64,000 bases of DNA from Phycisphaerae bacterium (GCA_022072085.1 JAJVII010000046.1:6597-70596); one strand, 5' to 3'. Counted from the stretch's first letter, positions 3,592 through 62,288 are shown. Translations and numbers: made by a program. The notes: generated by a model from the sequence alone, not told the origin.

Positions 3592-3815
3592 CGTTTCACC
3601 TGCCGATTGAACACGGCCGATCCGCCGGGGTTGCCCGGGTTTCTCCCGACGCGACGACGACCGAAAGGATCGAAACCTATCATAGGGCCTGCCCGGCGGC
3701 GGGTGCGGTCCGATTCACGTTGACTTGCTCGCCGGTGCAGAATATCGATATGGGGAGTCGATTTCGGACAGACCGGCCCGCGGCGTGCCGCCCGGCTGAC
3801 CGTCGGATATCCACC

Positions 3816-6620
<2,805 letters not shown>

Positions 6621-6654
6621 CGGAAGATGTCGAATTCCTTGTCCGGAAACCACC

Positions 6655-7893
<1,239 letters not shown>

Positions 7894-39844: not shown

Positions 39845-40777
39845 CTACTGCCTCATGAGGGTGCAGGCGGCGCAGGCGGGCCAATCGCGGAAGTCGCCCC
39901 GGCCGGCTGCCTCGCGCAGGCGGCGGTAGGGCTCGTCATTCCAGACCTCGGACAGCGTCCGATCCTTCACGTTGCCCAGGACGATCTGGTGGTCGGAGAC
40001 CACGCAGCAGGGGCACACGTCGCCGTTGTGCTTGATGACCGCGAAGCCAAATGGGAAGCGGCAGGGCCGGGGGGCCGGCGTCGGCGGCGGAGGCACAGGC
40101 ACGACCCGGCCGTCGCGGCCGACGTACTGGATGCCGTCCAGCCGCGTCAGCGGCGCGACGGTGATGACGTCGCACCAGGGCCGCCAGAACCGGGCGTACT
40201 CCTTTACGAACTGCTCGTCCTCCTGGTAACGCTCCCAGTGCAGCTCGATCTGCATGGGCGAACCGGCTTCGTCGCGCAGGCGGTGCAGCGTGCGGATGTT
40301 CTGCACGACCGTCTCGAACCGCGCCCCGCGGCGGATTTGCTCGTAACGCTCCCGGGTATATGCCTCGACCGAGAAGGCGATGCGCTGGAGGCCCGACGCG
40401 ATCAGCCCGCGGGCCGTCTCCTCGTCCACCAGCGTGCCGTTGGTGACCATCCGGACCTGGATGCCGCGCTCGACCGCGTGGGCGATCAATTCGACCAGCC
40501 GCGGGTGGAGGAACGACTCGCCCATGTTCTGGAGGCTGATGCTGTCGCCCGGCTGGTCGGCGATCTCGTCAAGCAGCCGCGCCGCCATCTCGAACGGCAT
40601 GTCGCCGCGCGGGGCGGTCAGGCGGTCGTGGTTGCACATGATGCAGCGGAGGTTGCACCGGCTGGTGAGCTGGATGTTGATCGACCGCGGGAACGGCGGA
40701 GCCGGCCGCACGCGCGCCGGCGGCGGAACCCGCCGGGCCGACACGACCGGCGACGGTAGCGTTCGAGGAAGCGCCAT
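39845..40777 (-). CDS. radical SAM / SPASM domain protein
   Basis: ATG 40777 preferred over TTG 40876; cluster QLTSRCNLRCIMC; SPASM-like CRFPFGFAVIKHNGDVCPCC ... WPACAAC. Confidence 0.8.
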   Translation of the reverse strand: MALPRTLPSPVVSARRVPPPARVRPAPPFPRSINIQLTSRCNLRCIMCNHDRLTAPRGDMPFEMAARLLDEIADQPGDSISLQNMGESFLHPRLVELIAHAVERGIQVRMVTNGTLVDEETARGLIASGLQRIAFSVEAYTRERYEQIRRGARFETVVQNIRTLHRLRDEAGSPMQIELHWERYQEDEQFVKEYARFWRPWCDVITVAPLTRLDGIQYVGRDGRVVPVPPPPTPAPRPCRFPFGFAVIKHNGDVCPCCVVSDHQIVLGNVKDRTLSEVWNDEPYRRLREAAGRGDFRDWPACAACTLMRQ

Positions 40778-40872
40778 CGCTGCGGACTCCTGACCCGGGC
40801 ACGGCTGACGGACTCGCCGCCGATGCCCCCTTGGTATCGGCTGGTTCCGGCTTCGGAATTGAGAGTTGTCCG

Positions 40873-42183
40873 TCAAGATCCCCGCGGGTCGGCGACGCGG
40901 CCCATGAACAGGATCGTGCCGGTCGCGCGGTGGCGGATCAGGAAGATGAAGGGGTGGTCGGCTCGGAAAACCTTGGGGTGCTCGGGCTCGACGGGCATGG
41001 CCGTCCCGACCATCATCACGGCCGTCGCGGCGGCGGCCTCGGTGCCCTCCTCGTCCACGGCGACGAAGGCCTTGTGGATCACCTCGCTGATGCAGAGCTT
41101 CTCGTGCGTGGCCATGCCGGAGAAGTCGGCTTTGTCCATATCGAACGCGTCGGTCATGCCCATGGCCTTGAGCGTGTCAGCCAGGGCGAACTCGGCGGCG
41201 AACTTGAACTTCGGCAGCGAGAGCTCGACTTCCTCGTGCCGCATCGCGGCCAGCCAGCCGTTCAGCTTGCCCGCCTGGATCGACTTTTCCACGTCGGCCA
41301 GCCCGTCGGCCTTCTTCGGCAGCAGCACGACCATGTCCAGGTCGCCGAGTTTGTAGGGCAACGACAGCATCTGAACCTGTTCGTTCTCGCCGTAGGCAAA
41401 CCGGTGCTGCTTGTGCATCATCGGGACCTTCGCGGTCTTGTCGGCTGACAGCTTGAAATCCTCGTCGCGGGTCAGTTCCTTGACGAACTTGTCCTGCCAG
41501 TTGCTCTTGAAGTAGATCGCGTTGGTGAGCACCAGCCGCGTGTCGGGCGTCAGGGCGCCGGGGGGGATCAGGTCCTTGATCTTCTCGCGGGTCTGGTCGG
41601 AGACCCAGTCGTTGATGGTCTTGCGGGCCGCATCGGGCTGGGCGAACTCGACCTGCTCCAGCCCCGCCCGGTAGGACTTCTTCAGGAGGCCCAGGAACTC
41701 CGGCACGAAGGCGTAGCCCTTCTGGCCCCACAGGGCGTTGGCGACGCTCAACTGGTAGGCCGGCTTTTTCACCGGCTTGGGCTGCCCGCCGTCCGGCGGG
41801 AACTCATACTCGGTCGCCTGGCCCGGCGTGTTCAGCGAGGTCACCAGCCGGGCGAACGCGTCGCTCAGCCGATCGCGCGGCAGGTCGTAGTGCAGCGTCG
41901 CAGCCATCTGATCGGCGGTCCGGCCTTTGGCCCCGGCCCAGGTCATCGCCAGGGCCGTGTCGATGGACGCCGGCGAGAAGAAGAGGTTGCCTTCCTTCGC
42001 GGCCGCCAACCTGGCGTAGAGGTCCGCGGCCAGTGCGTTGCAGCCCTGGGCCAGTTTCTGCGAGTCGGCCTTGACCGGCTCATCGGGCGCGGCCTCTGTC
42101 GGCTCGGGCGCCCCGGCCCGGGCGACCAGGGCCAGCCCCATCAGGATCACGGCGACTTCGACGGTCGTTGCGGCCATCTTCAT
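40873..42183 (-). CDS. serpin family protease inhibitor, secreted
   Basis: ATG 42183 with AAGGAG 6 nt upstream; signal peptide; serpin motifs FFSPASIDTALAMTWAGA, NAIYFKSNWQDKF, inhibitory hinge EEGTEAAAATA, FRADHPFIFLIRH. Confidence 0.9.
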   Translation of the reverse strand: MKMAATTVEVAVILMGLALVARAGAPEPTEAAPDEPVKADSQKLAQGCNALAADLYARLAAAKEGNLFFSPASIDTALAMTWAGAKGRTADQMAATLHYDLPRDRLSDAFARLVTSLNTPGQATEYEFPPDGGQPKPVKKPAYQLSVANALWGQKGYAFVPEFLGLLKKSYRAGLEQVEFAQPDAARKTINDWVSDQTREKIKDLIPPGALTPDTRLVLTNAIYFKSNWQDKFVKELTRDEDFKLSADKTAKVPMMHKQHRFAYGENEQVQMLSLPYKLGDLDMVVLLPKKADGLADVEKSIQAGKLNGWLAAMRHEEVELSLPKFKFAAEFALADTLKAMGMTDAFDMDKADFSGMATHEKLCISEVIHKAFVAVDEEGTEAAAATAVMMVGTAMPVEPEHPKVFRADHPFIFLIRHRATGTILFMGRVADPRGS

Positions 42184-42399
42184 GTGCGGCTCCTTGGGTT
42201 GTCCGACGCCTCGCTTATCCATGCACGTTCCTATCATACCCGATGGCGGGGTTGCGCGGGCGGTCCCGCGGCCCGGCACAAGCCAACGGAAGTGGCGACG
42301 GCGGGCAGCCGATAGGGTATAATAGGGGCCCGGCCGATGGAGCCGGCAACGTTCTTTGACAGATCGGCCGACGCTGTCTGCGGACGCGTCGTGCCTGTC

Positions 42400-42748
42400 G
42401 GGGGCGACAGGTTTCGACCGGACGAGTGACGGTGAAGGTGGCGTGCCCAGGTTGTCAGGAGGCCTGGTAAAACACCTGGCAATTTAAATTTACTTGCCAA
42501 TTCCAATTTGGCTCTGGCTGCGTAACACGTAGCCCGTCTGCCCGGTCTTGCCCGCGAGGCTGGAGCAGGCGAAAAACAGCGGGCTGGCTGGCGTGATGCC
42601 CGGTAAACGCCGGCGAGACTAATCGGGCTGGTCCGATGCGGATCCTGTCGACCGGAGCCGCAAAGGGCGAGACTCAAACGACCGACTACGCACGTAGAAG
42701 CCTCACTGCTGCCGTTACGGGACCGGGGTTCAATTCCCCGCGCCTCCA
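42400..42748 (+). ncRNA. ssrA: tmRNA (transfer-messenger RNA)
   Basis: 5' GGGGGCGACAGGTTTCGAC; 3' tRNA-like end GGACCGGGGTTCAATTCCCCGCGCCTCCA. The 7-bp acceptor stem has G3-U pairing. Internal tag frame ends ..ANSNLALAA-TAA (stop 42523-42525). CCA is not encoded. Confidence 0.9.
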
Positions 42749-42779
42749 GTTTCGAGTGGTTCTCGAAACCGTCTCTATC

Positions 42780-42817
42780 GTAGCAGGCCGTCCCGGAACA
42801 CCGGGACGGCCTGCTAC
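42780..42817 (+). terminator. hairpin terminator downstream of ssrA
   Basis: Perfect 17-bp stem GTAGCAGGCCGTCCCGG / CCGGGACGGCCTGCTAC with AACA loop, followed by GTTTCT; a smaller 8-bp hairpin lies at 42749-42769. Confidence 0.65.
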
Positions 42818-43092
42818 GTTTCTGGGCCCATTTCGCAGGGGTTTTCGCAAGGTGGACCGCGCCTGCGGGCTGCCCCTCGTCGGACTCGCTCGCCCTGTCT
42901 CGGCCCCGTTTTCGCCCTTTTCGTCTCTGTTTGGCCGAGATATCTCTGTTTCGTCGGACACGGCCCCAACGAGTCCGATGAGACGTAAGCAGCTTGTCCG
43001 TCGCGAGTTGCCAAAAAACGCTCATCGGACCCGAGCAAAGTTCGATGCCGGGCGCAGGGAGTAGCAAGCGTTCCATCGAAATTGGAGACGGC

Positions 43093-44943
43093 TCAGCCGG
43101 GAATTCCTTCGTCGTTGCTTGTGCGTTCGTCGAAGTCGTCGAACTGGCTGTACAACTTCTGGCCTCGCTTCATCCTTCCCAAGCGGGTGTTCTCGATCCG
43201 CTGTTGCAGGAACCTCGCCCCTTGCTCGAACAGGGAAACTGGCGTGTGGATCACCTTGTAATGCAGTTCGTCCTCGTAGGCATTGCGGATCACCCCGTAG
43301 CCCATCCGTGTGCCGCTACGATCACAGTCCCACTTCTTGAACTTCTCGTAGCGCCGGACGAGGTAGTTCAGATACCCGACCATCCGTGCATCTTCCGAGA
43401 CCGTTCCTGGGATTATCGGGGGCCGGGTCGCCGAACGTCCCTTGCCTCTCTTTGGCCTGGGCATGTTCACGGTGTAGTTCACGTCGCCCCCGGCCACGAC
43501 GTTGTTGTCGCCGCTGACGCTCAACGGGCCAGCCCGTCCAGCCGGGAATCTGAGGATGGCGGGGGCCTGCCGCAAGGGCACTTCTCCTCGTGCTACGGCG
43601 TCGTGCAGCTTCTGCCGATAGAGCCGCACCTCGTCCTCGGTAAGGTTCTTGGTCTGGCTCGTTTTGGAGTCGTATGTGTCGTGATGGAGTTGGCAGAGGT
43701 AGACGAAGTTGTCGATTTCATTATTGGAGCGATCATGGTCAAGGTGGGCGAGTTGTCCCTTCTTCTCCGATGCGTCGTGATCCAACGCCAGGCAGACGCA
43801 GCAGCGTCGCCGACACTTGGCGAGCAGTTCCGCTTCATCGGCACGAGATAGGGACCGACGATTCGGCCTGTTCATCGCTTTCTCCTGGCTCTTGCCAAGT
43901 CCCCCGCCGCGGGGCTTCGGCGTTCGGGTTCGTGATGCTGGTCCGCCCTTGCCTCGTCGTGTCCTGGCGGCAACGGTCATACGTCTGGCTTCGGCGAGCA
44001 GGCCAAGAAGCACGGGGCCTTCCATTTTCGCCAACGAATCGGGAGCGTGCCCACCGCAGACCAGATCCCGCTTGACGTTCAGCCAGTTCGGATTGTTGGG
44101 GTCACTGCCCGGGTAGACAGCAGCCAGGATTGACAAGTCGTCGTCAGATGGGCGGTAGTATCGATGCCAGACGCACCAACCGCTGTCAGGCGTTTTGCCA
44201 TCCCGCAGTTCTGCCAGTGTTGGAGCCAGCGGCTTCCGATTGACTGGTGTGCCATCTGGCATCAGGCCGGCGGGGATGGCCGCCCCGGTTCGCTCGCTAT
44301 GAACCATCTGCACGACACAGCCGGGGGACTCATCGATGGAGCAGCACATGTTCGGCGTGTGGTCACGTTCCAGTGGCCGAAGCGCCCATATCCAGACTCG
44401 CTCACCCACTGCCGGAGCGGCCGCCTCGGACTTGACGTTCCGGCGCGGCCATACTGGTCGCCTTGCGCGCGGTCGCGAGACGCTGGGCAGTTCCTTGCGC
44501 AAGAATGATTCCCACTTGCGAGCCTGGTCGTAATGCCGAACCAGCAGGACCGTTCGCGGATCGTTTGGAAAACCCAACAGTTCCCAGCCGTCGGGATCGA
44601 GGAAACTGCTCGGTGCGATCTCCGCGAGCTGCCGCACCTCCTGGTGGAAACGAACGCATTCGGTAGGGCCGTGATCTGCCCCGTCCACTACCTCGAAGAT
44701 GGGCGGCGATAGTGGATTGGGGCCGGATCTGGACGCCTGCTTATAGGCAGCTCGTTGCCAAGCAGCGTCCGGCTCCTCCTGCCGGAACAGGTCAACCAGT
44801 CTGTCGGCAATGGCCCGTAGGTCGGTCAAGAAGAAGACGTGTGAATCCTGTTCGTGCTCAGGCGCAGATGGGGCGGTGCGATCAGGGGGAGCATTGCCCA
44901 GCACCTCCAGTGGAAAACGCACTGCCAGGAAGTAGGTTGACAT
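43093..44943 (-). CDS. hypothetical protein with central HNH-like nuclease motif; unknown N-terminal domain of about 356 aa
   Basis: ATG 44943 overlaps stop of upstream gene (TAATG). HNH-like CCVCLALDHD..AHLDHDRSNNEIDNFVYLCQLHHDTYD. An in-frame internal ATG at 43875 is preceded by AGGAG. Confidence 0.7.
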   Translation of the reverse strand: MSTYFLAVRFPLEVLGNAPPDRTAPSAPEHEQDSHVFFLTDLRAIADRLVDLFRQEEPDAAWQRAAYKQASRSGPNPLSPPIFEVVDGADHGPTECVRFHQEVRQLAEIAPSSFLDPDGWELLGFPNDPRTVLLVRHYDQARKWESFLRKELPSVSRPRARRPVWPRRNVKSEAAAPAVGERVWIWALRPLERDHTPNMCCSIDESPGCVVQMVHSERTGAAIPAGLMPDGTPVNRKPLAPTLAELRDGKTPDSGWCVWHRYYRPSDDDLSILAAVYPGSDPNNPNWLNVKRDLVCGGHAPDSLAKMEGPVLLGLLAEARRMTVAARTRRGKGGPASRTRTPKPRGGGLGKSQEKAMNRPNRRSLSRADEAELLAKCRRRCCVCLALDHDASEKKGQLAHLDHDRSNNEIDNFVYLCQLHHDTYDSKTSQTKNLTEDEVRLYRQKLHDAVARGEVPLRQAPAILRFPAGRAGPLSVSGDNNVVAGGDVNYTVNMPRPKRGKGRSATRPPIIPGTVSEDARMVGYLNYLVRRYEKFKKWDCDRSGTRMGYGVIRNAYEDELHYKVIHTPVSLFEQGARFLQQRIENTRLGRMKRGQKLYSQFDDFDERTSNDEGIPG

Positions 44944-47900
44944 TATCCGCCCGCCCTTGGGTTCACCGCCGGCGCGGCGCAAGCGTCCTTCGCGGCCGTG
45001 TAATTCGTGTCCAGCGTCGGCTGTACGAGCAGCGTACAAGCGAGGCGGCGTGCTACATCGGCCAAGTACCGCGCCTCGTCGGCCGTCAGGCCGCGGGCGA
45101 GGATCGCGGCGTCGCGGTAGCTCAGCCACTTCTTGAGCACCTGGAAACCGCCAATACAGTAGTCCCACACGTTGGCCGGGACGTTCTTCCAGTAGGCCGT
45201 CTCGTTCAGGTAGATGTCGCGGGTGTCCGGGCCGAGCAGGTCGAGAGCCTGCTTCTCGGACAGGCTGCGGGCCTTGGCGGCCTCGGCAACGGCGGCCCGC
45301 TCGGTCTTCTCGTAGTCTCGCGTGACCACTCGACCCTGCCCCGGCATAGTTACACCGTCCTGGCCGAGGTAGCCCCAGCCGGTCAGCTTCAGGTCGCCAG
45401 CCTCCGGGTCCAGGCTGCCGCCGCCGACCTTCGAAACCGCGCCGAGCGTCTTGAACAGCGGCTCGATCCGGCCGGCGGTCACGCCCGGCACCGGGGCCTC
45501 CGGGTCCAGCAGCGCCGCCAGTTGCCGGCCGAGTTGAACCGACTTTTCAAACTGCCGGCGGTCCTTCGGCAGCGGAATCCGAGGCCAGTCCCGGCGGATG
45601 CCGTCGGCGTTCTCGGCAAGGTAAGCGGGACTGTAGCCGATGGCCAGGGCGTGCATCCAGATCATCGCCGCCGATTCCTCGTTGGCATCGAGGTCGGCGA
45701 TGCCGATGCTGACCAGGTATTCGCGGGCGCGGGCTGACAGGTTTGCTCGGCAGTGGTCCGGCCCGGCGAAGAGGTGTCCGCCATCGACGCTCTGACGAAG
45801 CCGGAGCGGGATGAAGTAGGCGTCCTTGTGCATCACGTGCTGATCGCCGAGGAACCGGCCGAAGTAGAGGCTGGCCCCGTCGATGGATTTGGGAGCGTGG
45901 CAGCGGACCAGCAGGAACCGGCTGTCTTCCGAGTAATCCTCGACGAGCCTACGCCGGACCTCATTCCAAAGCTTCGCCCTTGTTTCAACGTAGGCCCATC
46001 GCACGTCGAATGGTCGGAAGAAGAACTTGACGAGCTTGGACTCCTCGAAGCCGCCGAGCCGCAGTAGTTCCTGGCGGGTCCCCGCCGCATCGAACCGGGC
46101 GGCGTCCGTGGCGAGGCCAGGATGAATGTCGGCAAGCTGGGCAAGGCTGACCTTCGGATCGAAATATGTCCGCATTCGGTCGGCGATGACTTCTCGGTCG
46201 ATAGCGTGGACCCCCTGCTTACGATTGTCGTTCAGACCAAGCGACGGGTCCGCCTCGGCCAGTTCAGGGATCGTCGGCCAGTCATAGTAACCTTCGGCGA
46301 CCGAATCGGGCCGGTAGGAGAATTGGTTCTCCGTCGCCGGGTGAACCGGCTTGTACTGGCCGTTGAAGTCTGACGATTGTAGGCTGGCGAGCAATTCCCC
46401 GCGTTTCTCAGCACCCCAGAAATGTCGGAACCGAACGACGGGCTTCGCGTCCCGATTATCTCGTTGGACGATAACGCACACTGCCGTGCCGACGCGGATT
46501 CCCTCGCGGTTGTATTCGGTGGAGAAGACTGACGGATCGGGCTTGCCGTCGGGCGTAACCTTGCCCGTCTCCCGGCTGTCGCCGTTCATGCAGTCGAACC
46601 AGAGCCGGTCGAACTCGCCCAGGAATCGCTGCCGGACCACCACGAACGACGGCTCGGTCATGTACGAGAAGTTGGAGATGAACGAGACGACACCCTTGCC
46701 GGACATCTCGGCGATCCGTCGCTCCGCCAGCCGGAAGAACCGAACGTAGAGGTCGTCCAGGTAGTTCTTGTTGATGCCCCATTCCTTCAGCCCGGCCTTG
46801 TAGGGCTCGATCAACTTGGCCTCTTCGTCCACGGCCACGCCGGCGAAGCCGTTATATGGCGGGTTGCCGATGACGACCAGAATCTTTGCGTCGCGCTTCA
46901 CCTTCTCGGCTGCGTCCCGTTCGGCCTCCAGCTCGGGGAACAGCAGTTTCTTCGGCTCCTTCGGCGGCTCCCAGCCAGTCAAGGCGTTGGTCAGGTAGAC
47001 GCCCACCCGCTCGCTCTTCTTCGCGTTCAGCGGCACGCCGGCCCGTTGAAGCATCAGCCCGAGTTGGAGGTGCGAGACGACGAACGGGGCCGGCAGAATC
47101 TCGAAGCCGAACACCCGCGTCATCGCGGCTTTCTTCAGGTCGGAGGCGACCAGGGCGTCGCCGCCCTTGTCCTTCAGCGTGCCGGCGATGTGCCGGAGAA
47201 CCTCGACCAGGTAGGCCCCGGTCCCGCAGCAAGGGTCGAGCACTACGACGTTCGGGTCGGCCAGGCCATCGGGCAGGCCCAGTTCCTCTCGCAGCACGGT
47301 GTCGACGCGAGCGACCTGATACTGCACGATCTCCGGCGGGGTGTACCAGACGCCGAGTTCTTTCCGCAACTCCGGGTCGAATGCCTCCAGGAACGGCTCG
47401 TAGAAGTACTGCACGGCGTGCTCGTCCTGGAACTGCTGGAAGAACTCCCGGCGGTCCACGCGATTGAGCACGGCGGCGGTCCAGTCCAGCACCTCGACCA
47501 GGCCGAGCGGCCCGAGCTTGGTGGGCGTGGCCACTTCGTCGTACAGCGCCCGGATGAACGGAACGCGGAGCGTCCACGGGGCGACGCGCCAGTCGAAGGC
47601 GTCGCGGCGGGTGGGTTTCTCGCGATGCCAGAGCACCCAGGCGGAGAAGACGCCGTAGAACAGCGTCTGCACCAGCGTGGAGCGGAAGAAATGCTCGCCC
47701 CGGTCGCCTGTGAACTTCATGCCAAGGGCGTTTTCCAACGCCTCGCGAACCGCCGCCAGCGCCGGCAGATCGCTGTCGGTGATCCGGGCCAGCGCGTCGC
47801 GGGCGTAAGACGCCAAGAACCAGGCCACATCCTTCGGGTCTGCCAGCGGGGCGTTGTGCTGCATGACACGGGCGAGGTATTCGACAAACCGCTGGCCGTG

Positions 47901-48386
47901 CCGGTCGGCCAGCTTGCGGGGGTGAGCGGCGACTGACCAGAAATCGGCCTCGCTGTCGGCCAGGCGGTAAGCCTCCAGCGGCGTCGGCTTGCCCGACCCG
48001 TCCTGGCCGACCAGCACGAAATCGCGGTAATTGGTAACGAGCACCACGCCGTACTTCTTGCAGTACCTGGCGACCTGATCGGTTTCAGACACGTCGGCAG
48101 CGGCGACGGATGTCGATTTGACCTCCATCGCCCCACGGGCGGGCAGTTGGCCGGGCAGCGGCTCAGCCGCCGACCGTTGGAACTGGTCCGGCAGGAACAG
48201 CCCGCCGTCAGGGATGCCGGCGCCGCGGTTGGCGATGTTGATGACGCAGCGAACCTTGGGCTTGAGCCGCTTGCCGACCTCGTTGAGCAGGTTGGCCAGC
48301 GGCGGGTAATAGGATGTCTCGGGAACAGCGGCCCCCAGAGAACGAATATCGCGCATGGCGATCAGGTAGGTTTCCAGCGGATTCAT
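44943..48386 (-). CDS. Type IIG-like fused restriction-modification protein (PD-ExK nuclease, gamma-class N6-adenine methyltransferase, Type ISP-like C-terminal specificity domain)
   Basis: ATG 48386 (MNPLETYL..). Nuclease motif GIPDGG...GAMEVKS, SAM motif VVLDPCCGTGAYL, catalytic GNPPYNG, C-terminal NVWDYCIGGFQVLKKWLSYR. No Walker A ATPase seen. Confidence 0.8.
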   Translation of the reverse strand: MNPLETYLIAMRDIRSLGAAVPETSYYPPLANLLNEVGKRLKPKVRCVINIANRGAGIPDGGLFLPDQFQRSAAEPLPGQLPARGAMEVKSTSVAAADVSETDQVARYCKKYGVVLVTNYRDFVLVGQDGSGKPTPLEAYRLADSEADFWSVAAHPRKLADRHGQRFVEYLARVMQHNAPLADPKDVAWFLASYARDALARITDSDLPALAAVREALENALGMKFTGDRGEHFFRSTLVQTLFYGVFSAWVLWHREKPTRRDAFDWRVAPWTLRVPFIRALYDEVATPTKLGPLGLVEVLDWTAAVLNRVDRREFFQQFQDEHAVQYFYEPFLEAFDPELRKELGVWYTPPEIVQYQVARVDTVLREELGLPDGLADPNVVVLDPCCGTGAYLVEVLRHIAGTLKDKGGDALVASDLKKAAMTRVFGFEILPAPFVVSHLQLGLMLQRAGVPLNAKKSERVGVYLTNALTGWEPPKEPKKLLFPELEAERDAAEKVKRDAKILVVIGNPPYNGFAGVAVDEEAKLIEPYKAGLKEWGINKNYLDDLYVRFFRLAERRIAEMSGKGVVSFISNFSYMTEPSFVVVRQRFLGEFDRLWFDCMNGDSRETGKVTPDGKPDPSVFSTEYNREGIRVGTAVCVIVQRDNRDAKPVVRFRHFWGAEKRGELLASLQSSDFNGQYKPVHPATENQFSYRPDSVAEGYYDWPTIPELAEADPSLGLNDNRKQGVHAIDREVIADRMRTYFDPKVSLAQLADIHPGLATDAARFDAAGTRQELLRLGGFEESKLVKFFFRPFDVRWAYVETRAKLWNEVRRRLVEDYSEDSRFLLVRCHAPKSIDGASLYFGRFLGDQHVMHKDAYFIPLRLRQSVDGGHLFAGPDHCRANLSARAREYLVSIGIADLDANEESAAMIWMHALAIGYSPAYLAENADGIRRDWPRIPLPKDRRQFEKSVQLGRQLAALLDPEAPVPGVTAGRIEPLFKTLGAVSKVGGGSLDPEAGDLKLTGWGYLGQDGVTMPGQGRVVTRDYEKTERAAVAEAAKARSLSEKQALDLLGPDTRDIYLNETAYWKNVPANVWDYCIGGFQVLKKWLSYRDAAILARGLTADEARYLADVARRLACTLLVQPTLDTNYTAAKDACAAPAVNPRAGG

Positions 48387-48888
48387 GAGTGATGGTTGTA
48401 CCCGGAGGGCGACGTGACTGCAAGGTTTCGGGGATTCGGTTGAGCGTGGGCGGGCTGCCAGTCCGCCGCGGTCTCCGGGTTCCAATCCTTGAACCGCCGC
48501 CCGTCGCCTTGGCCGTCTGACCTGTAGTACCCGCCCCTGATACACCCGACTTTCGCAAATCTTATGCGCCCCTAACTCCTTATGGCAGCAGGGCCCGCCC
48601 CCGGTATGCGCGGCCGCTGGCGCATATGCGCCGGGGATAAGGGGAGAGCAAGTGTGGCCGGACGGAACGTGGCAGGAGGTTGGCCTGAGGCAAAAGACGC
48701 GACCTTAGCGTGTCACGTTTGGAGCGGAGGACGACTTACATCGGGGAGCGAGATGAAACGCAATCGGCCAAGGCGGGCCCGCGGCCCCCCGGCCTGCGAG
48801 AGAACGTGACACAGCAGATAGTGCCCCGTCGGGTGTTCCGGCCGGGCGGACGAGGCGAGCGGAATCTTCATCGGAAAGGACAGCAGTC

Positions 48889-50313
48889 ATGAACGCACGA
48901 AGAGTGATGCAGTCGGTGTTGGTGGCGGCCCTGGCCGCCGCCATGGCGGTCCCGGCCCTGGGCGCCGAGACCAGCAACGTGATTGATCTGAAGGCGGTGG
49001 ACGCCCAGATCACTGCCGCCCAGGGCCAGGTGGTCGCCGGCAACGTCGACGCCGCCCTGAAGGCCATCCAGGACGCGCGGGCCAAGGCGGTGACGGCGGA
49101 ACTGGCGGCGCGGGTCGCCTTCGTCAGCAAGTTGGCCGAGGTCCGCCTGGCCGAGAAGCTGGCCGACCCGGCCAAGGTGGTCACCGCCTTGACCGAGGCC
49201 AACGGTCAGGCCAAGCAGCCTGACCAAGTCGTTGCCGTCTGGCAGACGGCGGTGTCGGTGACGCGAGCGATGATGGCCGCCAAGGCCGACGCCGTGCCGG
49301 TGATCGACTTTATGGCCAAGGTCGCCCCGGGGATCAAGCAGTTCTCGGCCTGCATGGAGGTGGCCAACCTTCGGCTGGCCACCGGCAACCTGGGTGCGGC
49401 GGAGGCGGAACTCCGCAATGCGGCCGCACGGGCCGGTTCCGTCGGTGACTGGGCCGCCTGGGTGGCCGCCGTGTCTCGGTTGGCCACGCAGGTGGAGGCA
49501 CAGCTTCCTCGTGCCGGGGCGGACGTGTTCGATCGGCTGGCCGAGGTGGGCAAGCCGGCCGCGGCGGCGATGGGCATTGCCAAGGGCCGGTTCCTGCTGG
49601 CCCGCGGTGTGACTGACGGTGTCGGTGCGTTGGCCGAGCAAGCCATCGCAGCGGCCACGTCCGATGGTGAAGTCCTGGCCGGCATCTCCCTGACCTACGA
49701 CCTGGCGGGGGCGTTGCGTAAGGCCGGTAAGGCCGAGCAGGCCAGTCAGACGCTGGCCAAGGCCGAGGCCCTGGCCCAGTCGCGTTCGGCAAGCGTCGCC
49801 TTGGCCAACATCCGCGGCGCCGCCCTGGCCGCGTTCGGACAGCCCGAGAAGGCCTCCGAGGTCTTCGCGGCCACCGCCCAGGCGGTCAAGACGCCGGCGG
49901 AGCGCGACCAGATGTTGTCGGCCTGCGGGTCGGCGATGGTCGCGGCGGGCAACTCGGCTGACGTTCCCGGCAAGCTCCAGGCCGCCAAGGCCGGGCCGGC
50001 GGTGTATGTCGCCGTCGCCGGTGCGATGGCCAGGGCCGGGGACTCGACCGGCGCCCTGAAGCTGCTGGCGGCCGTGCCGCCGACGGCGTTCGCCGCCGAG
50101 CCGCAGTCGGTCGCAGGTGTTGCCCCGCTGATGCAGCAGATTCAGGCCCAGCGGCAGCAGGTCGCCCGCGAGCAGGCCGCTCGCGTCAAGGCGATTGCCG
50201 CGGCGTTCGACGCCGCCGCCAAGGCGGCCCAGGCCAAGGACCCCAAGGCCGCCGCGGCGCTGACCAAGCAGGCCGCCGCCATGACGGCCCTGGCCGGGCA
50301 GGTGGAGAAGTAA
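48889..50313 (+). CDS. secreted Ala-rich all-helical (TPR-like) protein, function unknown
   Basis: GAAAGGA 9 nt upstream of ATG; signal peptide VLVAALAAAMAVPALGA; 474 aa of low-complexity helical repeat; immediately upstream of the Rhs gene. Confidence 0.65.
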   Translation: MNARRVMQSVLVAALAAAMAVPALGAETSNVIDLKAVDAQITAAQGQVVAGNVDAALKAIQDARAKAVTAELAARVAFVSKLAEVRLAEKLADPAKVVTALTEANGQAKQPDQVVAVWQTAVSVTRAMMAAKADAVPVIDFMAKVAPGIKQFSACMEVANLRLATGNLGAAEAELRNAAARAGSVGDWAAWVAAVSRLATQVEAQLPRAGADVFDRLAEVGKPAAAAMGIAKGRFLLARGVTDGVGALAEQAIAAATSDGEVLAGISLTYDLAGALRKAGKAEQASQTLAKAEALAQSRSASVALANIRGAALAAFGQPEKASEVFAATAQAVKTPAERDQMLSACGSAMVAAGNSADVPGKLQAAKAGPAVYVAVAGAMARAGDSTGALKLLAAVPPTAFAAEPQSVAGVAPLMQQIQAQRQQVAREQAARVKAIAAAFDAAAKAAQAKDPKAAAALTKQAAAMTALAGQVEK

Positions 50314-50362: not shown

Positions 50363-50419
50363 CTCCCGGATCTGTTCCCGCTACCAACAGGAACCAACGC
50401 AGTATAGGGAGTGCAAACC

Positions 50420-53400
50420 ATGTTCAGCAAGCAATCATACCGTAGCTACATCGGCTTCTCTCTGACAGTTGTCTTGGTGCTGGCACTGTCCCTGCCGGCA
50501 ATGGCCTGCCCTCAGGCCGGCAGTCCCGTGAAACCCGACAACACGCCGAATACCAAGACTCGATGTGAATGCCCTTGCGAAGGTGACGCGGGCAGCGGCA
50601 CTGGCTGTGGAGGCTCCAGGTCCGGACCCAACGCGGAGCCAGCCGACAGGGCTGCCGGGGACGTGACCATGCGTCAGACGGACGTTGCCCTTCCGGCCTC
50701 TTCACCTTCATGGTTGCAGGTTCGCGGCTATTCCAGCAGCTTGGCGGGCGGCACCTATATCCAGGGCACTAAGTGGAGGGCCGACGTGTTGACGGCGTTC
50801 CTGGCACCGGGCGATTCGGGCAGCGTGGAGTTGTACCGCAGCCACGTCAGCAAGCGGGTCTTCACGTTCAGTGGCGGCAGCTATATGCCCCCCGATGACT
50901 TCCATGCCAACTTGACGCACGACACCGGCAACAAGGTCTTCCTGCTCAAAATGACCGACAGCGGCGAGCAGTTCATGTTCCGCGACTTCGACGCTAGTTG
51001 GCCGGCCAACAGTCGGGGTATTATCCAGTCACAGACCGATCGTAACGGACAGGAGAGCATTCAGTATCTCTATGACACGGCCGCGCCCGGGGGCCGGATC
51101 ACGTCGGTGACGACCGCCCAGGGCTGGACGGTCGACTACGGCTACGTTCCCTCGGGGACCAACGTGGGGCAGATCGACACGATCGAGGTCCACAACGGCG
51201 CCGGCCAGGTCATTCAGCGGGTCCGCTACACCTACTACAAGGACGGGGGCGGGTATTCGACCGACTGCGGGAGCAACGGGGACCTGATCATGGTTCAGAC
51301 GTTCAGGCGGGGGACGGGGGACGACCTGAACCAATCGTCCGACGCCCACTTCTCGGTGCAGCGGACCACGATGTACCGCTACTACCGCGACGGGTCGGCC
51401 GACGGGGCCGCCGGCCAACTGAAGATGCAGATCAACCCGGCGGCGGTGGCCAAGGCGATGGCCGACGGGGACAAGACGGCGGGCGAACTGCTGGCCACCG
51501 CCGACAGCGGGATCGTGACCGGCAGCACGACGCTGGGCGACTACGCCGCGGCGACCTACCGCTACTACACCAGCAACTTGGACACCACCGACGTGGACAC
51601 GGCCGAGGGCGGGGTCGGCGGCGACAACGAGGACCTCCAGGACGCCTACGGCGGGACGAACGTCGACGAGACCGGCTACCTGCGGTCCGAGACCATCCGC
51701 AGCGTCACGGCGGGGGCGCTGGGCACGCGGACCTACTTCTACATGGACAAGTACGACCCGGCCACGTCGGGGCCCAACGCGGTGACCCGGATCCTCGTCG
51801 AGGACACCGCCGACGACGGCACGCGGCGGATCACGGCGGTCAACAAGGACCGCATCCCGCTGCGGCAGATCACCGTGGACGACCCGGATGGGGCGACGCC
51901 GAAGTACTGGTGCAGTTCGTCGGTGCTGGGCGAGACCAAGGATACCTCCACCAACGACGTCAACCAGGTGGTCGAGAGCCGGCCCCCGTCGGCCCACACC
52001 TGCATCGACAGCCTGGCCAAGGTCCGCACGTTCCTGGCCGCCAAGACAGCCACCGACTGGACCAACACGGACATCCTGAACGCCTCGGCCGGGCGGATCT
52101 CCCTTTACGCCTACAACGCCCAGGGCTACCAGATCGAGGAGCGGATCAAGCAGGGCCGCACCGGCGACGCCTACTACCTGCACGTCACCGAATACGGCGA
52201 CGGCTCAGCCAACCAGCCCACCTATCTGCCGGTGACTGACTACGCCTACCCGGTGGAGACAACCTCCAAGACCGACGCCAGCCGACTGACGACCAGCTAC
52301 GCCTACACCTTCTGGGACACCGCCGGCAACAGCAACCAGCAGCTGAAGACCCGCACGACGACCTACCCGATCGTGACGACCGACCGCAACGGCCCGGGCA
52401 CGGCGGTGACCGGTGCCGAGTATTACGACGATAGCGGCCACCTCCGCTGGACGCAGGACGGCGACGGGCACGTCAACTACTACGCCCACAACGCCCACAC
52501 CGGCGGGACGGGCTACATGATGGTGGACGTCAAGACCGACAGCCTGCCGGCCCATATCACCAACGGCTCGGACCCGGACTGGGTGGCCTGGAGCGGGACG
52601 CCCCCGTTCAGCTATACCGCCGGCGACGCCCTCCAGTTGGTCAGCAAGTACACTTATGACGACCAGGGCCGCCAGGTGAGCGTCCAGGACCCCGAGGGGC
52701 TGGTCACCGCCACCGCCTACGGTGACAACCAGACCCGGGTCTACCCGGCCTGGGACGCCACGAATCACACCTGCGCCCTGCCCATCGAGATCAGCAAGAC
52801 CGACGATGACGGCCGGACGACCGACGCCTATTCGGTCGACCCGACGGGGGTGACCATCGGCACCAGTGGCTCCCTGCCCACCGGCAGCGACGGGGGCGAG
52901 ACGCAGGACGACTACACCGCTTGGACCCGCTACGCCTACAACGCTGTCTCAGGGATGCTGGAGATCACGGACCGCTACCACACCATTCCCAGTTCCGGCT
53001 TCGGCAGCCTGGGCGCCAATTTCCAGCGGACCTTCTACCGCTACGACTCCCTGGGGCGGACCATCCGCACCATCGGGGTCGTCAGCGGCACCGACGCGGC
53101 CGGCCTGACTGGCTGCGTCGAACAGGTCACCCGCACCGACTACGACTCCCTCGGCCGGGTCAAGGCGGTCTACCGCGGCGTCAGCAGCGCCAGCCACGTC
53201 ATGAAGACCACTACGATCTACGACACCGACCCGACGATGTACAAGGTGGCCGAGAACTTCTACGACGAGACCTCCCCCGGCAGCGGCACCGAGGCCGTCG
53301 GCGACGGCAACCTCACTGCCAGCCGCACCTACTTCGACAGCGGGGCCAACGACTACCTGACTGAACTGAACCAGTACGACTGGCGCGACCGGCTGGAGCA

Positions 53401-56400
53401 GACCCGCGTACCGGGCGACATCACCGCCCGGTACACCTACTGCAACCTCGACCGGCTGCTCAAGACCGAGACCTACGCCGACGCCGACGAGGACTGGACC
53501 ATCGACGGCGGGGGCAACTACGAACTGCGGGCCGTCCAGGAAACCAGCTACGATCAGCAGGGGCGAACCTGCCGTCAGTCGACCTACGACGTCACTTCCG
53601 ATGCCCCCACCGTCAAGCTGACCACCAACTACTGGTACGGCGCCCGGGGCAACCAAGTCAAGACCAAGGACCCCGCCGGCCTGTTCAGCAAGATCGTCTA
53701 CGACGGGGCCGGACGGGCCGTCGCCGACTACGTCTGCTACGACCCCGACGAGGCGGACACCGATTACGCCCAGGCCCTAACCGTCGACGCCGTCGGCGGC
53801 AGCGGGGCCGACACCGTCGTCAACGTCACTGCCAGCGTCTACGACTCCGATGGCCGGGTCACCCAGGTCAAACGGGGCACCTCCCTGGCGAACGCCGTCA
53901 CCGTCCGCAAGGACTGGTACGACACCGCCTGCGACGGCAGCGGGACCCAGCGGCCCTACCTGACCGGCACCAGCGTCCTTAAGGCCACCGACAGCACCTC
54001 CGCCTTCGCCCTGACCACCTACGAGTACGACCGCGCCGGGCGGCAGTCGGCCGCCGTCCTGCCCGACCCCGACGGCGCCGGCGACCTGGTCCAGACCAAA
54101 TCCGAGCAGACCTTCGACGCCCTCGGCCGGGTCCTGACCGCCACCACCAGCAAGAAGGACGGGGCCAACTGGGACCTGCTGACCCGGAGCGAAACCCTCT
54201 ACGGCGACTCGATCTACCCCACCACCAGCCGGACCTACAAGGCCGACACCAGCGTCTACCTCCAGACCGCCTACGACTACGACGGCTACGGCCAACTCCG
54301 CAGGACCACCGGCCCGAACGGGGCGTTCACCAAGGCCGTCTACAACGACTACGGCCGGCTGACCGGCTCCTACGTCGGCACCGACGAGGGCGACACTGAC
54401 GACCCGCTGAGCGTCACCGACGACACCGTCGTCCAGCAGACCGTCCCCTCCTACGACCCGGCCACCGGGCGGGTCTGGATGACCGCCTCCTACCAGCGCA
54501 ACGACGGGGCCGCCGGCACGGGCGCCCTGACCCCCTCCAACGCCCGCGTCTCCTACGCCGTCACCTGGTTCGACGACGTCGGCCGGGTCAAGTGGGCCGC
54601 CGACTACGGCACCAACGGCGGGACGGCCATCACCAGCCGGTCCTATGACTTCGACGGCGCCGGGGCGGGCAGCGACTATGCCACCGCCGCCATGGCCGCC
54701 GGGACCAGCGACTACATCCTGACCGCCCTCCAGTACGACGGCTACGGCCGCAACGACCGGGTCACCGACAACAAGGGGCACAAGACCCGGACCTTCTACG
54801 ACACCAAGGGCCGGCGGACCCACGTCGCCGAGAACTGGGACGACTTTGCCGCCACCGACGGCGGCAGCGAGTCCGGCTCCGGCGATGCCACCGACACCTC
54901 CAAGGACCGCGTTACCAAGTACGTCTACAACGACGCCGGACAGGTCACCCAGTTGATCGCCTTCGATCCCAACGGCGACGGCAACTCGGCCGACAACCAG
55001 GTCACCCGCTACGTCTACGCCGCCGAATTGACCGACAAGGGCTGCCCCGTCCCCGACAACGCTCGCCTCCGCGGGGTCATCTACCCCGACAGCGCCGATA
55101 CGGTCACCAGTAACGCCATGACCGGCGCCGACCACGTCGAGGTCACCTACTACGCCGACGGCTCGGCCGCCACACGCACCGACCAGCGCGGCGTCGAGCA
55201 CACCTACGCCTACGACGACCTGGCCCGGCCGCTCACCGACGCCCTGACCGCCGTGCCGGCCAATGACGTCCACTTCGACGGAGCGATCCGCCGGATCGGA
55301 AGGACTTACGACCAGCTCGGCCGGCTGGCCAGCGTCTCCAGCTACGACGCCGCCACCGGCGGCAACGTCAAAAACCAGGTCGCCTTCGCCTATGACGACT
55401 GGGGCCCGGTGATGACCTCCTGGCAGGCCCACGCCGGCTCAGCAGTCATCAGCGGCGGCAGCCAGTCCCCTCACGTCGACTACGCCTACGCCGACGGGGC
55501 CTCTGGCGACATGGCTAGTTACCTCAGATTGAGTAGCGTGACCTACCCCGGACCGTCTACCCAGCGGGCGGTATACTACAACTACCCGGCCAGCGGGTCG
55601 ATCGGGGGTCGGCTGAACCGGCTGGACAACATCGCCACCAGCGCCAGCCCGAGCAGTTCGGACAAGTATGCCAGTTACACGTATTTGGGGGCCAGCGCCA
55701 TCGTCCAGGTCGCACATCCCGCGGTGACCAACGGGCTGACGCTCACCTACGGCTCAGGCGGCAGCTACACCGGGCTCGACCGCTTCGGGCGGGTCATCGA
55801 CCAGACCTGGCGGGACACCCAGGGCACGCCGGTCACCAAGGACCGCTTCCGCTACGGCTACGACGCTGCGAGCAACCGGGTCTGGAAAGAGAACAAGCTG
55901 GCCTCGGACAGCTCCAAGGCCCTCGACGAGTTCTACCTCTACGACGGCCTGGACCGGCTGGCTGACAGCAAGCGCGGCCATCTGGCCGGCACCTATCCTT
56001 CCTACACCGGCATCGCCAACACCCCAGCCGACCAGCAGACCTGGACCCTCGATCAGTTGGGCAACTGGGGGGGCTTGGTGGTCAAGGCCACCGGGGCGAC
56101 GACGTTGGATCAGTCCCGCACCAACAACCCCGTCAACGAGATCACCGACATCGCCGGCAACAACGGCACGCCGACCTGGGTCACCCCTGCCTACGACGCC
56201 GCGGGCAACATGACATACGGCCCGAAGCCCGGCGACGAGGCCACCGCCACCTCGGCCCTGCTGTGCGTCTGGGACGGCTGGAACCGCCTGGTCAAGGTCT
56301 ACAAAGATGACGGCACGGGCGACGGCAACGCCGGCGCGCTGGTCACGGACCCCGACGAGGGCCAGACGGCTGACAGCCTGGTGGCCGAATACCAGTACGA

Positions 56401-57998: not shown

Positions 57999-58530
57999 TC
58001 ACCCGCCTGCAATGACTGGGGCGGGTAAGGGCGGGAGTTGGCCGGTGGTCAGGTAGGTTCGCAGGGCGGCGACCATGGTGTCGGTGGGGTCGTGGCCGCG
58101 GAGTCGGAGCGTGCGGTAAATGCTCATCAGCACCGCCTGCGTCGCGGCGCCCTTCTCGGAGCGGTTGGACTGGCTGTTCTTGCGGATCAGGACGGCTGGG
58201 CGAATCATCCGCTCAGCCAGGTTGTTCTCGAAGGGAACCGCCGGGTGATCCAGGAACGTGAACAGGCTGTCGCAGTATTTCAGCAGCCGCTTGGCCAACC
58301 GGCTGGCGTCGCCGTCGCCATACTCGCCCTGGGCCAACGCCATCAGCCGACGGGTTCGGCCAGCCCGGCGGCAGGACGGCCGCCAGCTTGCCCAGCCGCA
58401 GCAGCTTGGCATAACGCCGCACCGCGTCCCGGTTTATGCCCAGCTCGCTGGCGATCCGACGCTGCGGCCAGTTGGCCAGCAGCAACGACACAATGGCTTG
58501 AACGGCCACCATCTTGAGTCGATTGGCCAT
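57999..58530 (-). pseudogene. transposase debris: HTH N-terminal fragment joined out of frame to an IS66-family transposase C-terminal fragment
   Basis: 57999-58412 encodes FLDHPAVPFENNLAERMIRPAVLIRKNS..GAATQAVLMSIYRTLRLRGHDP (IS66 C-terminus). 58530 downward encodes MANRLKMVAVQAIVSLLLANWPQRRIASELGINRDAVRRYAK in another frame. No DDE core is present. Confidence 0.6.
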
Positions 58531-59749: not shown

Positions 59750-60214
59750 TCACCGTTGCTTTTCCCTGAAGCGGAGCCGTTTGCGCTGCTCTGGCCACGC
59801 CATGGGCGGGTTGGACAGGTTCCGGAGGGCCAGACCCTCGGGCTCCTGGCCAGCCAGGATCATGTCGATGATGTCCGGGGCCAAGGTCGCCAGCCGCAGG
59901 ATGCGGCCGATGTAGGAGGCGTCAACGCCGTTCATCGCCGCCAGTTCCTTGATCGAGCCGACCTGGCCGGTCTCCATCATGGTTTGCCACTTGAACGCCT
60001 TGGCCAGGGCGACGACCAGTGGGCGGCGAGGCGTGGGCTTGGGCGTCTCGGTCGCGCCCGTGCCCTCCGGCAATATGATCTCTTTCCGGCCGCCGCGCTT
60101 TCGCAGGGCCATCGGCAACTGGATAACAATGGCGTCGCCATCAACCCAGACCTTGCGGCCGGGGTACTTGCGGTTCAACTCGGCCCCCAGGTTCACGTCC
60201 GCTTTGCGAATCAT
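59750..60214 (-). CDS. hypothetical protein with ParB/HTH-like LRLATLAPDII motif, recombinase-associated
   Basis: ATG 60214 overlaps recombinase stop (ATGA); motif SIKELAAMNGVDASYIGRILRLATLAPDIIDMILAG. Confidence 0.6.
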   Translation of the reverse strand: MIRKADVNLGAELNRKYPGRKVWVDGDAIVIQLPMALRKRGGRKEIILPEGTGATETPKPTPRRPLVVALAKAFKWQTMMETGQVGSIKELAAMNGVDASYIGRILRLATLAPDIIDMILAGQEPEGLALRNLSNPPMAWPEQRKRLRFREKQR

Positions 60215-61824: not shown

Positions 61825-62288
61825 TTGGCCACCTCCTTGTTGCCGCCCGTCAAGCCGAAGAACCGCGGGCCGCTGTGGTGGGCGCCGGTGATCACCTTGG
61901 CGATCATGGTCAGGGACCGATACCGCCGGCCGGCGTACTCGAACGTGCCGTCGGTGCCGACCGTGACCTCATGCCGCCGCCCGCCCCACAGGCGGACCAG
62001 CCGGGTGCCGGGCACCAGCCCTGGCTTGGCCTGCCGCCTGCCCCGTCCCGCGCGCCGGGCGGCGCCGGCCGGCGCTATCTCCGCGGCGACCTGCGCCAGC
62101 GTCCGCTGGGCCTGCTCGCTCAACCCGCCGCTGTTCAGTTCCTGGACCCGCCAGGCCAGCCGCCGGGCCATCTGCTCGGCGCTATACGCTGGGGCGTCGG
62201 TGCCGAACAAGGCACGCCACTTGTCCCGCAGCCGGACCAGCGGCATCCGCTGGATGGCTGCAACTTGTTGTAGGACAGTCAGTTCCAT
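61821..62288 (-). CDS. DUF2924-like protein
   Basis: Stop overlaps recombinase start; LRDKWRALFGTDAPAYSAEQMARRLAWRVQE and C-terminal GRRYRSLTMIAKVITGAHHSGPRFFGL pattern. Confidence 0.7.
   Translation of the reverse strand: MELTVLQQVAAIQRMPLVRLRDKWRALFGTDAPAYSAEQMARRLAWRVQELNSGGLSEQAQRTLAQVAAEIAPAGAARRAGRGRRQAKPGLVPGTRLVRLWGGRRHEVTVGTDGTFEYAGRRYRSLTMIAKVITGAHHSGPRFFGLTGGNKEVAK

Follow-up and report, generated by a model that had tools for sequence, protein, structure and literature searches.

Why would a restriction enzyme that appears complete in a single chain be made together with a second putative nuclease? The question is raised by two genes, here called g1 and g2, in a stretch of 64,000 nucleotides from a Phycisphaerae bacterium (GCA_022072085.1 JAJVII010000046.1:6597-70596). 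This whole stretch, with a G+C content of 67%, is the window throughout. A preliminary description, made from the DNA alone, had taken g1 for a Type IIG-like nuclease-methyltransferase and g2 for an HNH protein of unknown family, and had proposed the two as a candidate undescribed defence module. We found that the pair looks like a restriction-modification system to which a modular effector has been added, seemingly one that has not been described. Below, related proteins are designated P and loci L; coordinates are collected in Table 1.

A Type IIG enzyme

We found that g1 resembles Type IIG enzymes in family matches, motifs and layout. It matched the REase_MTase_IIG models of PADLOC (6.9e-85 and 4.4e-68) and, in Pfam, Type_ISP_C (PF18135; 2.1e-31) and N6_Mtase (1.5e-8), as well as Eco57I and MmeI_Mtase. 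Sequence matches in the Protein Data Bank (PDB) were LlaGI (5ffj), DrdV (7lo5) and LlaBIII (4xqk). Those to LlaGI and LlaBIII span the methyltransferase and target-recognition part only; the methyltransferase and target-recognition region of DrdV likewise matches that of g1. The motifs named in the preliminary description (GIPDGG and GAMEVKS of the nuclease, DPCCGTGAY, NPPY and IGGFQVLKKWL) are all present in the 1147-aa translation. Methyltransferase motif I (DPCCGTG) lies at aa 384 and motif IV (NPPY) at aa 508, and the nuclease, S-adenosylmethionine-binding and (N/D)PPY catalytic motifs are all intact. As had also been noted, g1 contains no Walker A motif, and it has no helicase or ATPase match in Pfam. 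Judged from these features, g1 is a complete, self-sufficient Type IIG enzyme and an ordinary member of its class, in agreement with the earlier assignment.

Other assignments were rejected. A Type ISP enzyme would carry a superfamily-2 helicase-like ATPase between nuclease and methyltransferase, and g1 has none. The score against BREX PglX was 19.3 bits (NCBIfam BREX_2_MTaseX; cut-off 400) and that against MADS MAD2 was 24.6 bits (NCBIfam; cut-off 720). We found neither PglZ nor BrxC nor any other MADS gene in the flanks of the pair.

Species-representative genomes were scanned for relatives of g1, and 80 loci were returned, with 45-73% identity, from Planctomycetota, Acidobacteriota, Cyanobacteria, Chloroflexota and other phyla. 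Among 63 aligned full-length family members, conservation of the nuclease pattern G.G.PD.G...P.RG..E.K exceeds 90%. Divergence is greatest in the recognition domain (33-57% identity), as expected for enzymes with different specificities. The open frame of g1 extends upstream to a GTG at 48545; alignments of homologues begin at the ATG at 48386.

A partner gene that overlaps the g1 stop codon

The TAA of g1 (44945-44943) and the ATG of g2 (44943-44941) have one A in common. This TAATG, and the 616-aa frame that it opens, were read from the sequence as first described, and the overlap implies that g1 and g2 are co-translated. The source annotation of the window holds only the last 260 aa of g2 (P0157, 100% identical), starting at Met357 (codon at window 43867-43875). 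Likewise, the source record of locus L017 holds only a 261-aa product, P0160, that consists of the HNH and C-terminal parts.

Several observations indicate that the N-terminal 356 codons of g2 are coding. The codon-position G+C of g2 has the pattern of a coding sequence (G+C at third positions is 0.70, compared to 0.84 in g1). P0001 (612 aa), which is also coupled to a g1 homologue, is collinear with g2 over its full length with 59% identity, and the N-terminal region is conserved at the protein level in P0001, P0002 and P0007. In comparisons with L011, dN/dS was 0.25 for the N-terminal domains of the partner and 0.16 for the C-terminus of g1. For N1 and N2, the two N-terminal modules described below, dN/dS was 0.14-0.25 against the distant locus L001, and values across the whole partner were 0.12-0.25. 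These ratios indicate that the partner is under purifying selection. Furthermore, P0001, P0005 and P0006 have no internal methionine equivalent to Met357, which argues that the fusion of N-terminal and HNH parts is real. Internal initiation at Met357 may occur. As annotation splits or truncates the gene, public protein sets lack the N-terminal two thirds of the partner.

Modules of the partner

No family of Pfam, NCBIfam or PADLOC matched g2 above threshold; its only PADLOC match, PDC-M68A (E 0.0059 over 47 residues), is insignificant. The view that the partner is uncatalogued thus held. A search of a large protein collection gave ten relatives, which we aligned with g2. P0002 and P0007 share the first ~320-330 residues of g2 and end in a TIR domain, P0003-P0006 share only the last ~260 residues, and P0008-P0010 share only the HNH part. 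Confidence values for each module come from an AlphaFold model of g2 built on 58 sequences (Table 1).

The HNH-like core that had been recognized in g2 is present, with CCVC (381-384), HLDH (400-403; AH400LD), N408, N413 and LCQLHH (416-421; H420 and H421). In a Foldseek search of the PDB, the best match was the HNH domain of the CBASS protein Cap5 (8fm1; probability 1.0, E 8.5e-3, ~100 residues); a search of BFVD with the g2 model gave weak HNH proteins only. A phmmer search of 1.84 billion representatives gave 2032 matches, nearly all to residues 360-458. The consensus of 164 HNH relatives is RRCC.C...GQiAHlD....N....Nl..LC..HHd.YD, in which H400, the asparagine, H420 and H421 are conserved in at least 90% and His403 is not. 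We take the underlying H-x-D-...-N-N-...-N-L consensus to be that of the HNH_3 (I-HmuI-like) branch. Pfam HNH_3 (PF13392) scored below threshold on g2 itself (18.3 bits; gathering cut-off 24.8; E 0.0019) and matched 25 of 146 relatives at E ≤1e-3. From fold and conserved residues, g2 aa 360-460 belongs to the HNH (beta-beta-alpha-Me) superfamily as a divergent relative of HNH_3 rather than a member of the curated Pfam family. The earlier statement that g2 is an HNH protein of an unfamiliar family stands for the protein as a whole, which has no family above threshold, and needs qualifying for its HNH module, which is no orphan but part of a large, uncharacterised HNH_3-like family. About 2000 representative clusters bear this module, and no curated family covers them.

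In the relatives that match HNH_3, the module is fused to NACHT, NB-ARC or AAA_16 NTPases, TIR, LRR or TRADD-N domains, which are architectures of immune type. It is N-terminal in the LRR, TIR and STAND-NTPase proteins P0094, P0100, P0108 and P0153.

The remaining modules are orphans. N1 was found only in the Type IIG-linked proteins P0001, P0002 and P0007, plus P0033 and P0076, whose gene context was not visible. N2 (landmarks VWIWALRPLERDH ... YYRPSDDDLSIL ... NPNWLNVKRDL ... LLGLL) is common to P0003, P0028, P0036, P0189-P0193 and the L017 partner. The C-terminal domain (PGTVSED ... YLNYLVRRY ... TRLGRMK) travels with this type of HNH in proteins of ~250 aa. In some proteins it is paired instead with a classical IHHI...LC..CH HNH, which supports the reading of the g2 module as a nuclease. 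Foldseek gave no structural match in PDB or BFVD for N1, N2 or the C-terminal domain. We found no NTPase in g2; a lone AELRDGKT match lies outside a P-loop context.

Linkage of partners to Type IIG genes

We inspected the DNA around every reachable relative of the partner. Eleven distinct partners lie immediately 3' of, and on the same strand as, a Type IIG gene: g2 of the window, P0001, P0002, P0007, P0003, the L017 partner, P0006, P0159, P0005, P0011 and P0036. These represent at least six unrelated N-terminal architectures. Linkage across genomes, which the preliminary description had named as a test, thus came out in favour of its interpretation. Eight of the linked partners overlap the stop of the Type IIG gene by 1-19 nt, and overlaps equivalent to the TAATG of the window are found in L001, L011, L012, L013, L014, L017, L100 and L113.

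Proteins that consist of the HNH and C-terminal domains without an N-terminal extension are found beside OLD/TOPRIM, UvrD-like or other HNH genes, or alone. None of those examined was linked to a Type IIG gene, indicating that the N-terminal extension is the module that carries the association with Type IIG genes.

Exchange of domains at module boundaries

We found that locus L011 resembles the window on both sides of a different effector. In a blastn comparison, L011 is 87.6% identical to window 45659-43963, which is the end of g1 and g2 to ~aa 327. Thereafter, the 0.88-kb HNH and C-terminal block of the window is replaced in L011 by 2.2 kb of TIR and HEPN-gene DNA. The breakpoint, at window 43962/43963, lies between N2 and the linker, at a domain boundary. 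Homology resumes downstream at 81% (L011 3901-4240 = window 43081-42742) and stops within 6 nt of the 3' end of the tmRNA gene of the window. No tmRNA gene was found in L011, so we assign this end to a mobile island.

The TIR domain of P0002, the L011 partner, and those of P0007 and P0033 match ThsB models best in PADLOC (PDLC00420; 1e-17 to 2e-25); N1 is also combined with a TIR in P0007 and P0033. L011 has an extra gene after the TIR (2263-3825), encoding a protein with TPR repeats and HEPN_LA2681 (Pfam 1.9e-74). This protein may be a second component alongside the ThsB-like TIR.

Two other loci bear traces of exchange. Just 3' of the partner, L017 has an orphan copy of the last ~100 enzyme residues (7387-7692), 55-58% identical to g1 aa 1042-1143, which suggests the footprint of an incoming cassette that displaced the resident 3' end. 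The orphan resembles the displaced 'orphan' C-termini of polymorphic toxin loci. The L100 enzyme is 74% identical to g1 over its first 432 residues and only 48% over the remainder, another sign of mosaic evolution. Its gene (3397-6995) is called as two open reading frames (ORFs), of 444 and 754 aa, adjoining at a single base, for which a frameshift, phase variation or a faulty assembly could be responsible. Taken together, these alignments indicate that the partner is a mosaic in which effector and N-terminal domains have been exchanged at domain boundaries.

Surroundings of the pair

The placement of the pair next to ssrA, in an island that also carries an Rhs gene, was confirmed as first described (Table 1). 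The tmRNA gene was located with ARAGORN, and the hairpin and T run just after g2 likely mark the end of the two-gene operon. To delimit the island, we looked for direct repeats of the 3' end of the tmRNA; the window contained none. The 16-bp inverted repeat that follows the tmRNA gene is also kept in L011, which itself has no tmRNA. Small ORFs 3' of the partner (in L004, L005, L097, L099 and window 42234-43076) were rejected as spurious; they are arginine-rich and unconserved between loci, and the ORF calls in window 42234-43076 overlap the tmRNA.

At the DNA level the Rhs gene has YD-type repeats (53.0-56.7 kb), and the C-terminal ~310 residues of its product, a putative toxin tip, have no family match. 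Elsewhere in the window, ARAGORN called a tRNA-Trp (CCA) at 14674-14769(-). At 96 nt it is unusually long for a bacterial tRNA and may reflect an insertion, an intron or a miscall.

Table 1. Features of the window and partners linked to Type IIG genes at other loci
Feature	Window position or locus	Strand	Remarks
g1, single-chain Type IIG restriction-modification enzyme	44943-48386	(-)	1147 aa
PD-(D/E)xK nuclease motif of g1	48114-48218	(-)	aa 57-91; GIPDGG aa 57, RGAMEVKS/GAMEVKS aa 85
Methyltransferase region of g1	46467-47489	(-)	aa ~300-640; gamma-class N6-adenine; Pfam matches
Type_ISP_C target-recognition domain of g1	45105-46244	(-)	aa 715-1094; IGGFQVLKKWL aa 1078
TAATG, g1 stop/g2 start	44941-44945	(-)	one-base overlap, read from sequence
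g2, modular partner	43093-44943	(-)	616 aa
N1, orphan module of g2	44434-44943	(-)	aa 1-170; AlphaFold pLDDT ~45; no Pfam match
N2, orphan mixed beta/alpha domain of g2	43948-44406	(-)	aa 180-332; pLDDT 60-90
Basic low-complexity linker of g2	43867-43947	(-)	aa 333-359; pLDDT <50, disordered
HNH nuclease module of g2	43564-43866	(-)	aa 360-460; pLDDT >90
Orphan all-helical C-terminal domain of g2	43096-43416	(-)	aa 510-616; pLDDT >90
Candidate terminator, hairpin then T run	43019-43037	(-)	consensus scan only; 56 nt after g2 stop
Perfect 16-bp inverted repeat, GTAGCAGGCCGTCCCG ... CGGGACGGCCTGCTAC	42781-42818	(+)	33 nt after tmRNA gene
tmRNA (ssrA) gene	42400-42748	(+)	ARAGORN; 345 nt past g2 end
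Bacterial serpin	39845-42279	(-)	Pfam 1.5e-125; chromosomal side of ssrA, adjoins radical SAM/SPASM protein
Orphan ORF	48889-50313		474 aa; precedes Rhs gene
Rhs protein	50411-57919	(+)	2502 aa; Rhs_assc_core domain at aa 2118-2190
IS66 transposase fragment	57999-58433	(-)	deeper in the island, as is the recombinase
Large serine recombinase	60211-61968	(-)	Resolvase + Recombinase + Zn_ribbon_recom
P0001	L001-L003, L005-L010, L108, L109		19-nt overlap with 1206-aa g1 homologue, 49-52% identity
P0002	L011		1-nt overlap with g1-like stop
P0007	L012		1-nt overlap with g1-like stop
P0003	L013		4-nt overlap with Type_ISP_C gene
P0006	L014		4-nt overlap with Type_ISP_C gene
P0159	L100, L101		4-nt overlap with Type_ISP_C gene
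P0011	L113		4-nt overlap with g1-like gene
L017 partner	L017		ATGA overlap with 68%-identical g1 homologue
P0005	L111		108 nt after g1-like gene
P0036			240 nt after different, MmeI/Eco57I/TaqI_C-type Type IIG gene

A model for the pair, and alternatives

How might the two proteins work together? We see roughly an even chance that g1 is a sensor with a co-translated adaptor-effector, g2, whose N-terminal region docks a swappable effector. The N-terminal region of the partner (N1 and N2 in the window) would dock onto the restriction enzyme, and the C-terminal block would be the exchangeable effector, an HNH DNase with a helical domain here and a TIR elsewhere. The Type IIG enzyme would recognize unmethylated target sites on incoming DNA, and several DNA-bound enzymes would then assemble into a higher-order complex, as in DrdV. 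Assembly would bring the attached effector domains together and switch them on, so that site-specific restriction would be supplemented by indiscriminate cutting of DNA (HNH) or by NAD+-based signalling or NAD+ depletion (TIR). We infer the physical binding of g1 and g2, the role of the enzyme as sensor, the trigger and the defence phenotype, the last of these from architecture and context. Oligomerisation is the typical switch for Cap5-type HNH and TIR effectors. In DrdV, cleavage is licensed when DNA-bound enzymes oligomerise (bioRxiv 10.1101/2021.01.06.425610). On these two grounds we prefer assembly on DNA as the trigger. A wider reading, with chances somewhat short of even, is that Type IIG enzymes are the sensor arm of a modular system into which fast-evolving adaptors plug interchangeable effectors for suicide or amplification (HNH DNase or TIR), with unmethylated DNA or sabotage of the enzyme by phage inhibitors leading to abortive infection.

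Several findings weigh against the model of a sensor with a docked effector. Among 72 g1 homologues in reference genomes with a visible 3' end, only the one in L017 has a partner; the other 71 have unrelated genes, or no gene, on their 3' side. Clearly, no partner is needed for the enzyme to work, and the partner is thus an optional accessory. Systems of the g1-g2 type are rare, and the evidence for them comes mostly from environmental metagenomes, largely Planctomycetota-like. P0005 and P0036 are separated from the enzyme gene by gaps of 108-240 nt, with no overlap, and the short contigs available for P0004 and P0009 contained no Type IIG gene. The C-terminal tail of g1 is slightly more similar in some linked loci, but unlinked homologues score equally. 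We compared the N-terminal domain of the partner with g1, as an effector-associated domain might suggest, and found no similarity. The model of N1 is of low confidence and gives no structural support for docking. Finally, a ThsB-like TIR could be a signal generator and not a killer, which would imply further components.

Other explanations of the pair can be set against the same evidence. One, modelled on PrrC, keeps the anatomy of the favoured model (an effector that is linked and co-translated and has a variable adaptor) and changes the trigger: the bound partner would be inactive until a phage anti-restriction protein blocked the enzyme and freed the effector, killing the cell by DNA degradation or loss of NAD+. 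There is precedent in PrrC, which is latent with the Type Ic enzyme EcoprrI and activated by T4 Stp (PMC1484252), and the fast turnover of N-terminal modules would fit an arms race with inhibitors. However, g2 has no likeness in sequence or domains to PrrC (an ABC-ATPase with an anticodon nuclease) and lacks an NTPase. The sequence data do not separate an inhibitor trigger from a foreign-DNA trigger, and we consider this guard-like arrangement fairly unlikely. We regard as clearly unlikely the idea that the two are independent defence genes in one operon, the partner sensing infection itself through its N-terminal region. Defence genes do cluster, and most relatives of g1 have no partner and are followed by unrelated genes. 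Some of these neighbours look defence-like by motifs read by eye, not profile-tested: a P-loop NTPase in L033, an Mrr-like protein in L080, a possible SIR2-like protein in L057/L058 and a NERD-like protein in L084. The stand-alone HNH and C-terminal proteins beside OLD/UvrD and other HNH genes also fit independence. Yet the same gene order and strand in 11 partners with mutually unrelated N-terminal domains, eight of them with stop/start overlaps, is not what a random neighbourhood would give, and the extension-free forms are not linked.

We hold it very improbable that the HNH and C-terminal block is a mobile nuclease cassette, whether selfish, homing-type or other, fused in frame and with no role in restriction. 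HNH_3 domains are typical of homing endonucleases; the block is ~70-78% identical in aa between loci, compared to ~50% for the adjacent g1 genes, and is found behind many N-termini; in the source annotation it is a gene of its own, of 260 aa; and L017 contains the orphan fragment. Against this, a TIR, which is not a homing function, replaces the HNH behind N1-N2 in L011, L012 and P0033, and on this account the homing-type insertion that the preliminary description had held out as an alternative is unlikely. In addition, the N-terminal region is under purifying selection, several homologues have no internal start, modules related to the HNH are joined to STAND NTPases, LRR and TRADD-N, and we saw no intein, intron or target-site context. 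Most improbable of all, in our view, is that only the 260-aa product from Met357 is made and that the 356 codons upstream are an untranslated or decaying remnant. P0157 (260 aa) and P0160 (261 aa) are indeed the products on record, and the lower third-position G+C of g2 would agree with decay. The in-frame ATG placed exactly at the g1 stop, the 59% identity to P0001 over all 616 aa, the dN/dS of 0.25 (N-terminal domain, L011) and 0.14-0.25 (N1 and N2, L001), and the lack of an internal methionine in P0001, P0005 and P0006 all argue otherwise.

Comparison with known systems

The pair had no match in PADLOC-DB v2.0.0, Pfam or NCBIfam, nor did P0001, P0003, P0005, P0006, P0011, P0159 or P0036 in PADLOC-DB v2.0.0, and a literature search for a Type IIG enzyme paired with an HNH or TIR protein found nothing relevant. 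In defence catalogues the locus appears as a Type IIG enzyme and nothing more. Restriction-modification is usually treated as a first-line, self-contained barrier, and PrrC-EcoprrI, the single classic example with a suicide effector attached, is usually seen as a curiosity. If the sensor-effector model is true, the coupling of restriction to an abortive-infection-type output would be a general design and would connect restriction-modification with effector-based immunity in a way so far unrecognized. The three orphan domains N1, N2 and the helical C-terminal domain would gain a function, and the ~2000-cluster HNH family and several orphan domains a context. With only two genes, the pair would also be a simple system in which to study how recognition of DNA leads to effector activation.

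In layout, g1 is the same as the Type IIG/IIL enzymes (DrdV and the MmeI family), with an N-terminal nuclease, a gamma methyltransferase and a C-terminal Type_ISP_C domain. However, the described enzymes act alone, whereas g1 is coupled to a second protein with a second nuclease. The Type ISP enzymes LlaGI and LlaBIII have the methyltransferase and target-recognition half in common with g1, which lacks their helicase-like ATPase.

Parts of g2 and its relatives recall effectors of other systems. Cap5, a DNase, becomes active when its ligand induces tetramerisation. Its HNH fold matches that of the g2 module with a sequence identity of only 14-20%. We rejected g2 as a Cap5 protein: there is no SAVED-domain match and no cyclase nearby, and the HNH fold alone matches. 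The likeness to Thoeris ThsB is that of the TIR domains of P0002, P0007 and P0033, not of g2 itself; no ThsA was seen, and in these variant partners the TIR follows a Type IIG-linked N-terminal domain.

The organization of the pair has its nearest parallels elsewhere. In short Argonaute systems, target recognition drives oligomerisation, which activates the effector. According to one published account (PMC9097488), such systems (SPARTA and others) place a sensor beside an adaptor with an interchangeable effector, TIR included. There the sensor is an Argonaute and the adaptor APAZ; here the sensor would be a restriction enzyme, with an N-terminal adaptor unrelated to APAZ, and the likeness is one of analogy only. 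PrrC is an abortive-infection-type effector tied both genetically and physically to EcoprrI (PMC1484252), and it offers the clearest precedent for joining a suicide effector to a restriction enzyme. It differs in being a multi-subunit Type I system with an ABC-ATPase and tRNA nuclease, no domain in common with g2 and no exchange of HNH and TIR. An assignment of g2 to PrrC or RloC was rejected, as g2 has neither an ABC-ATPase nor an anticodon-nuclease domain and its neighbour is a Type IIG gene and not a Type I hsd gene. Although they have no defining component in common, g1-g2 may be likened by analogy both to systems that combine a sensor with a swappable effector, such as short Argonautes with effector-APAZ and the CBASS effectors, and to PrrC-EcoprrI.

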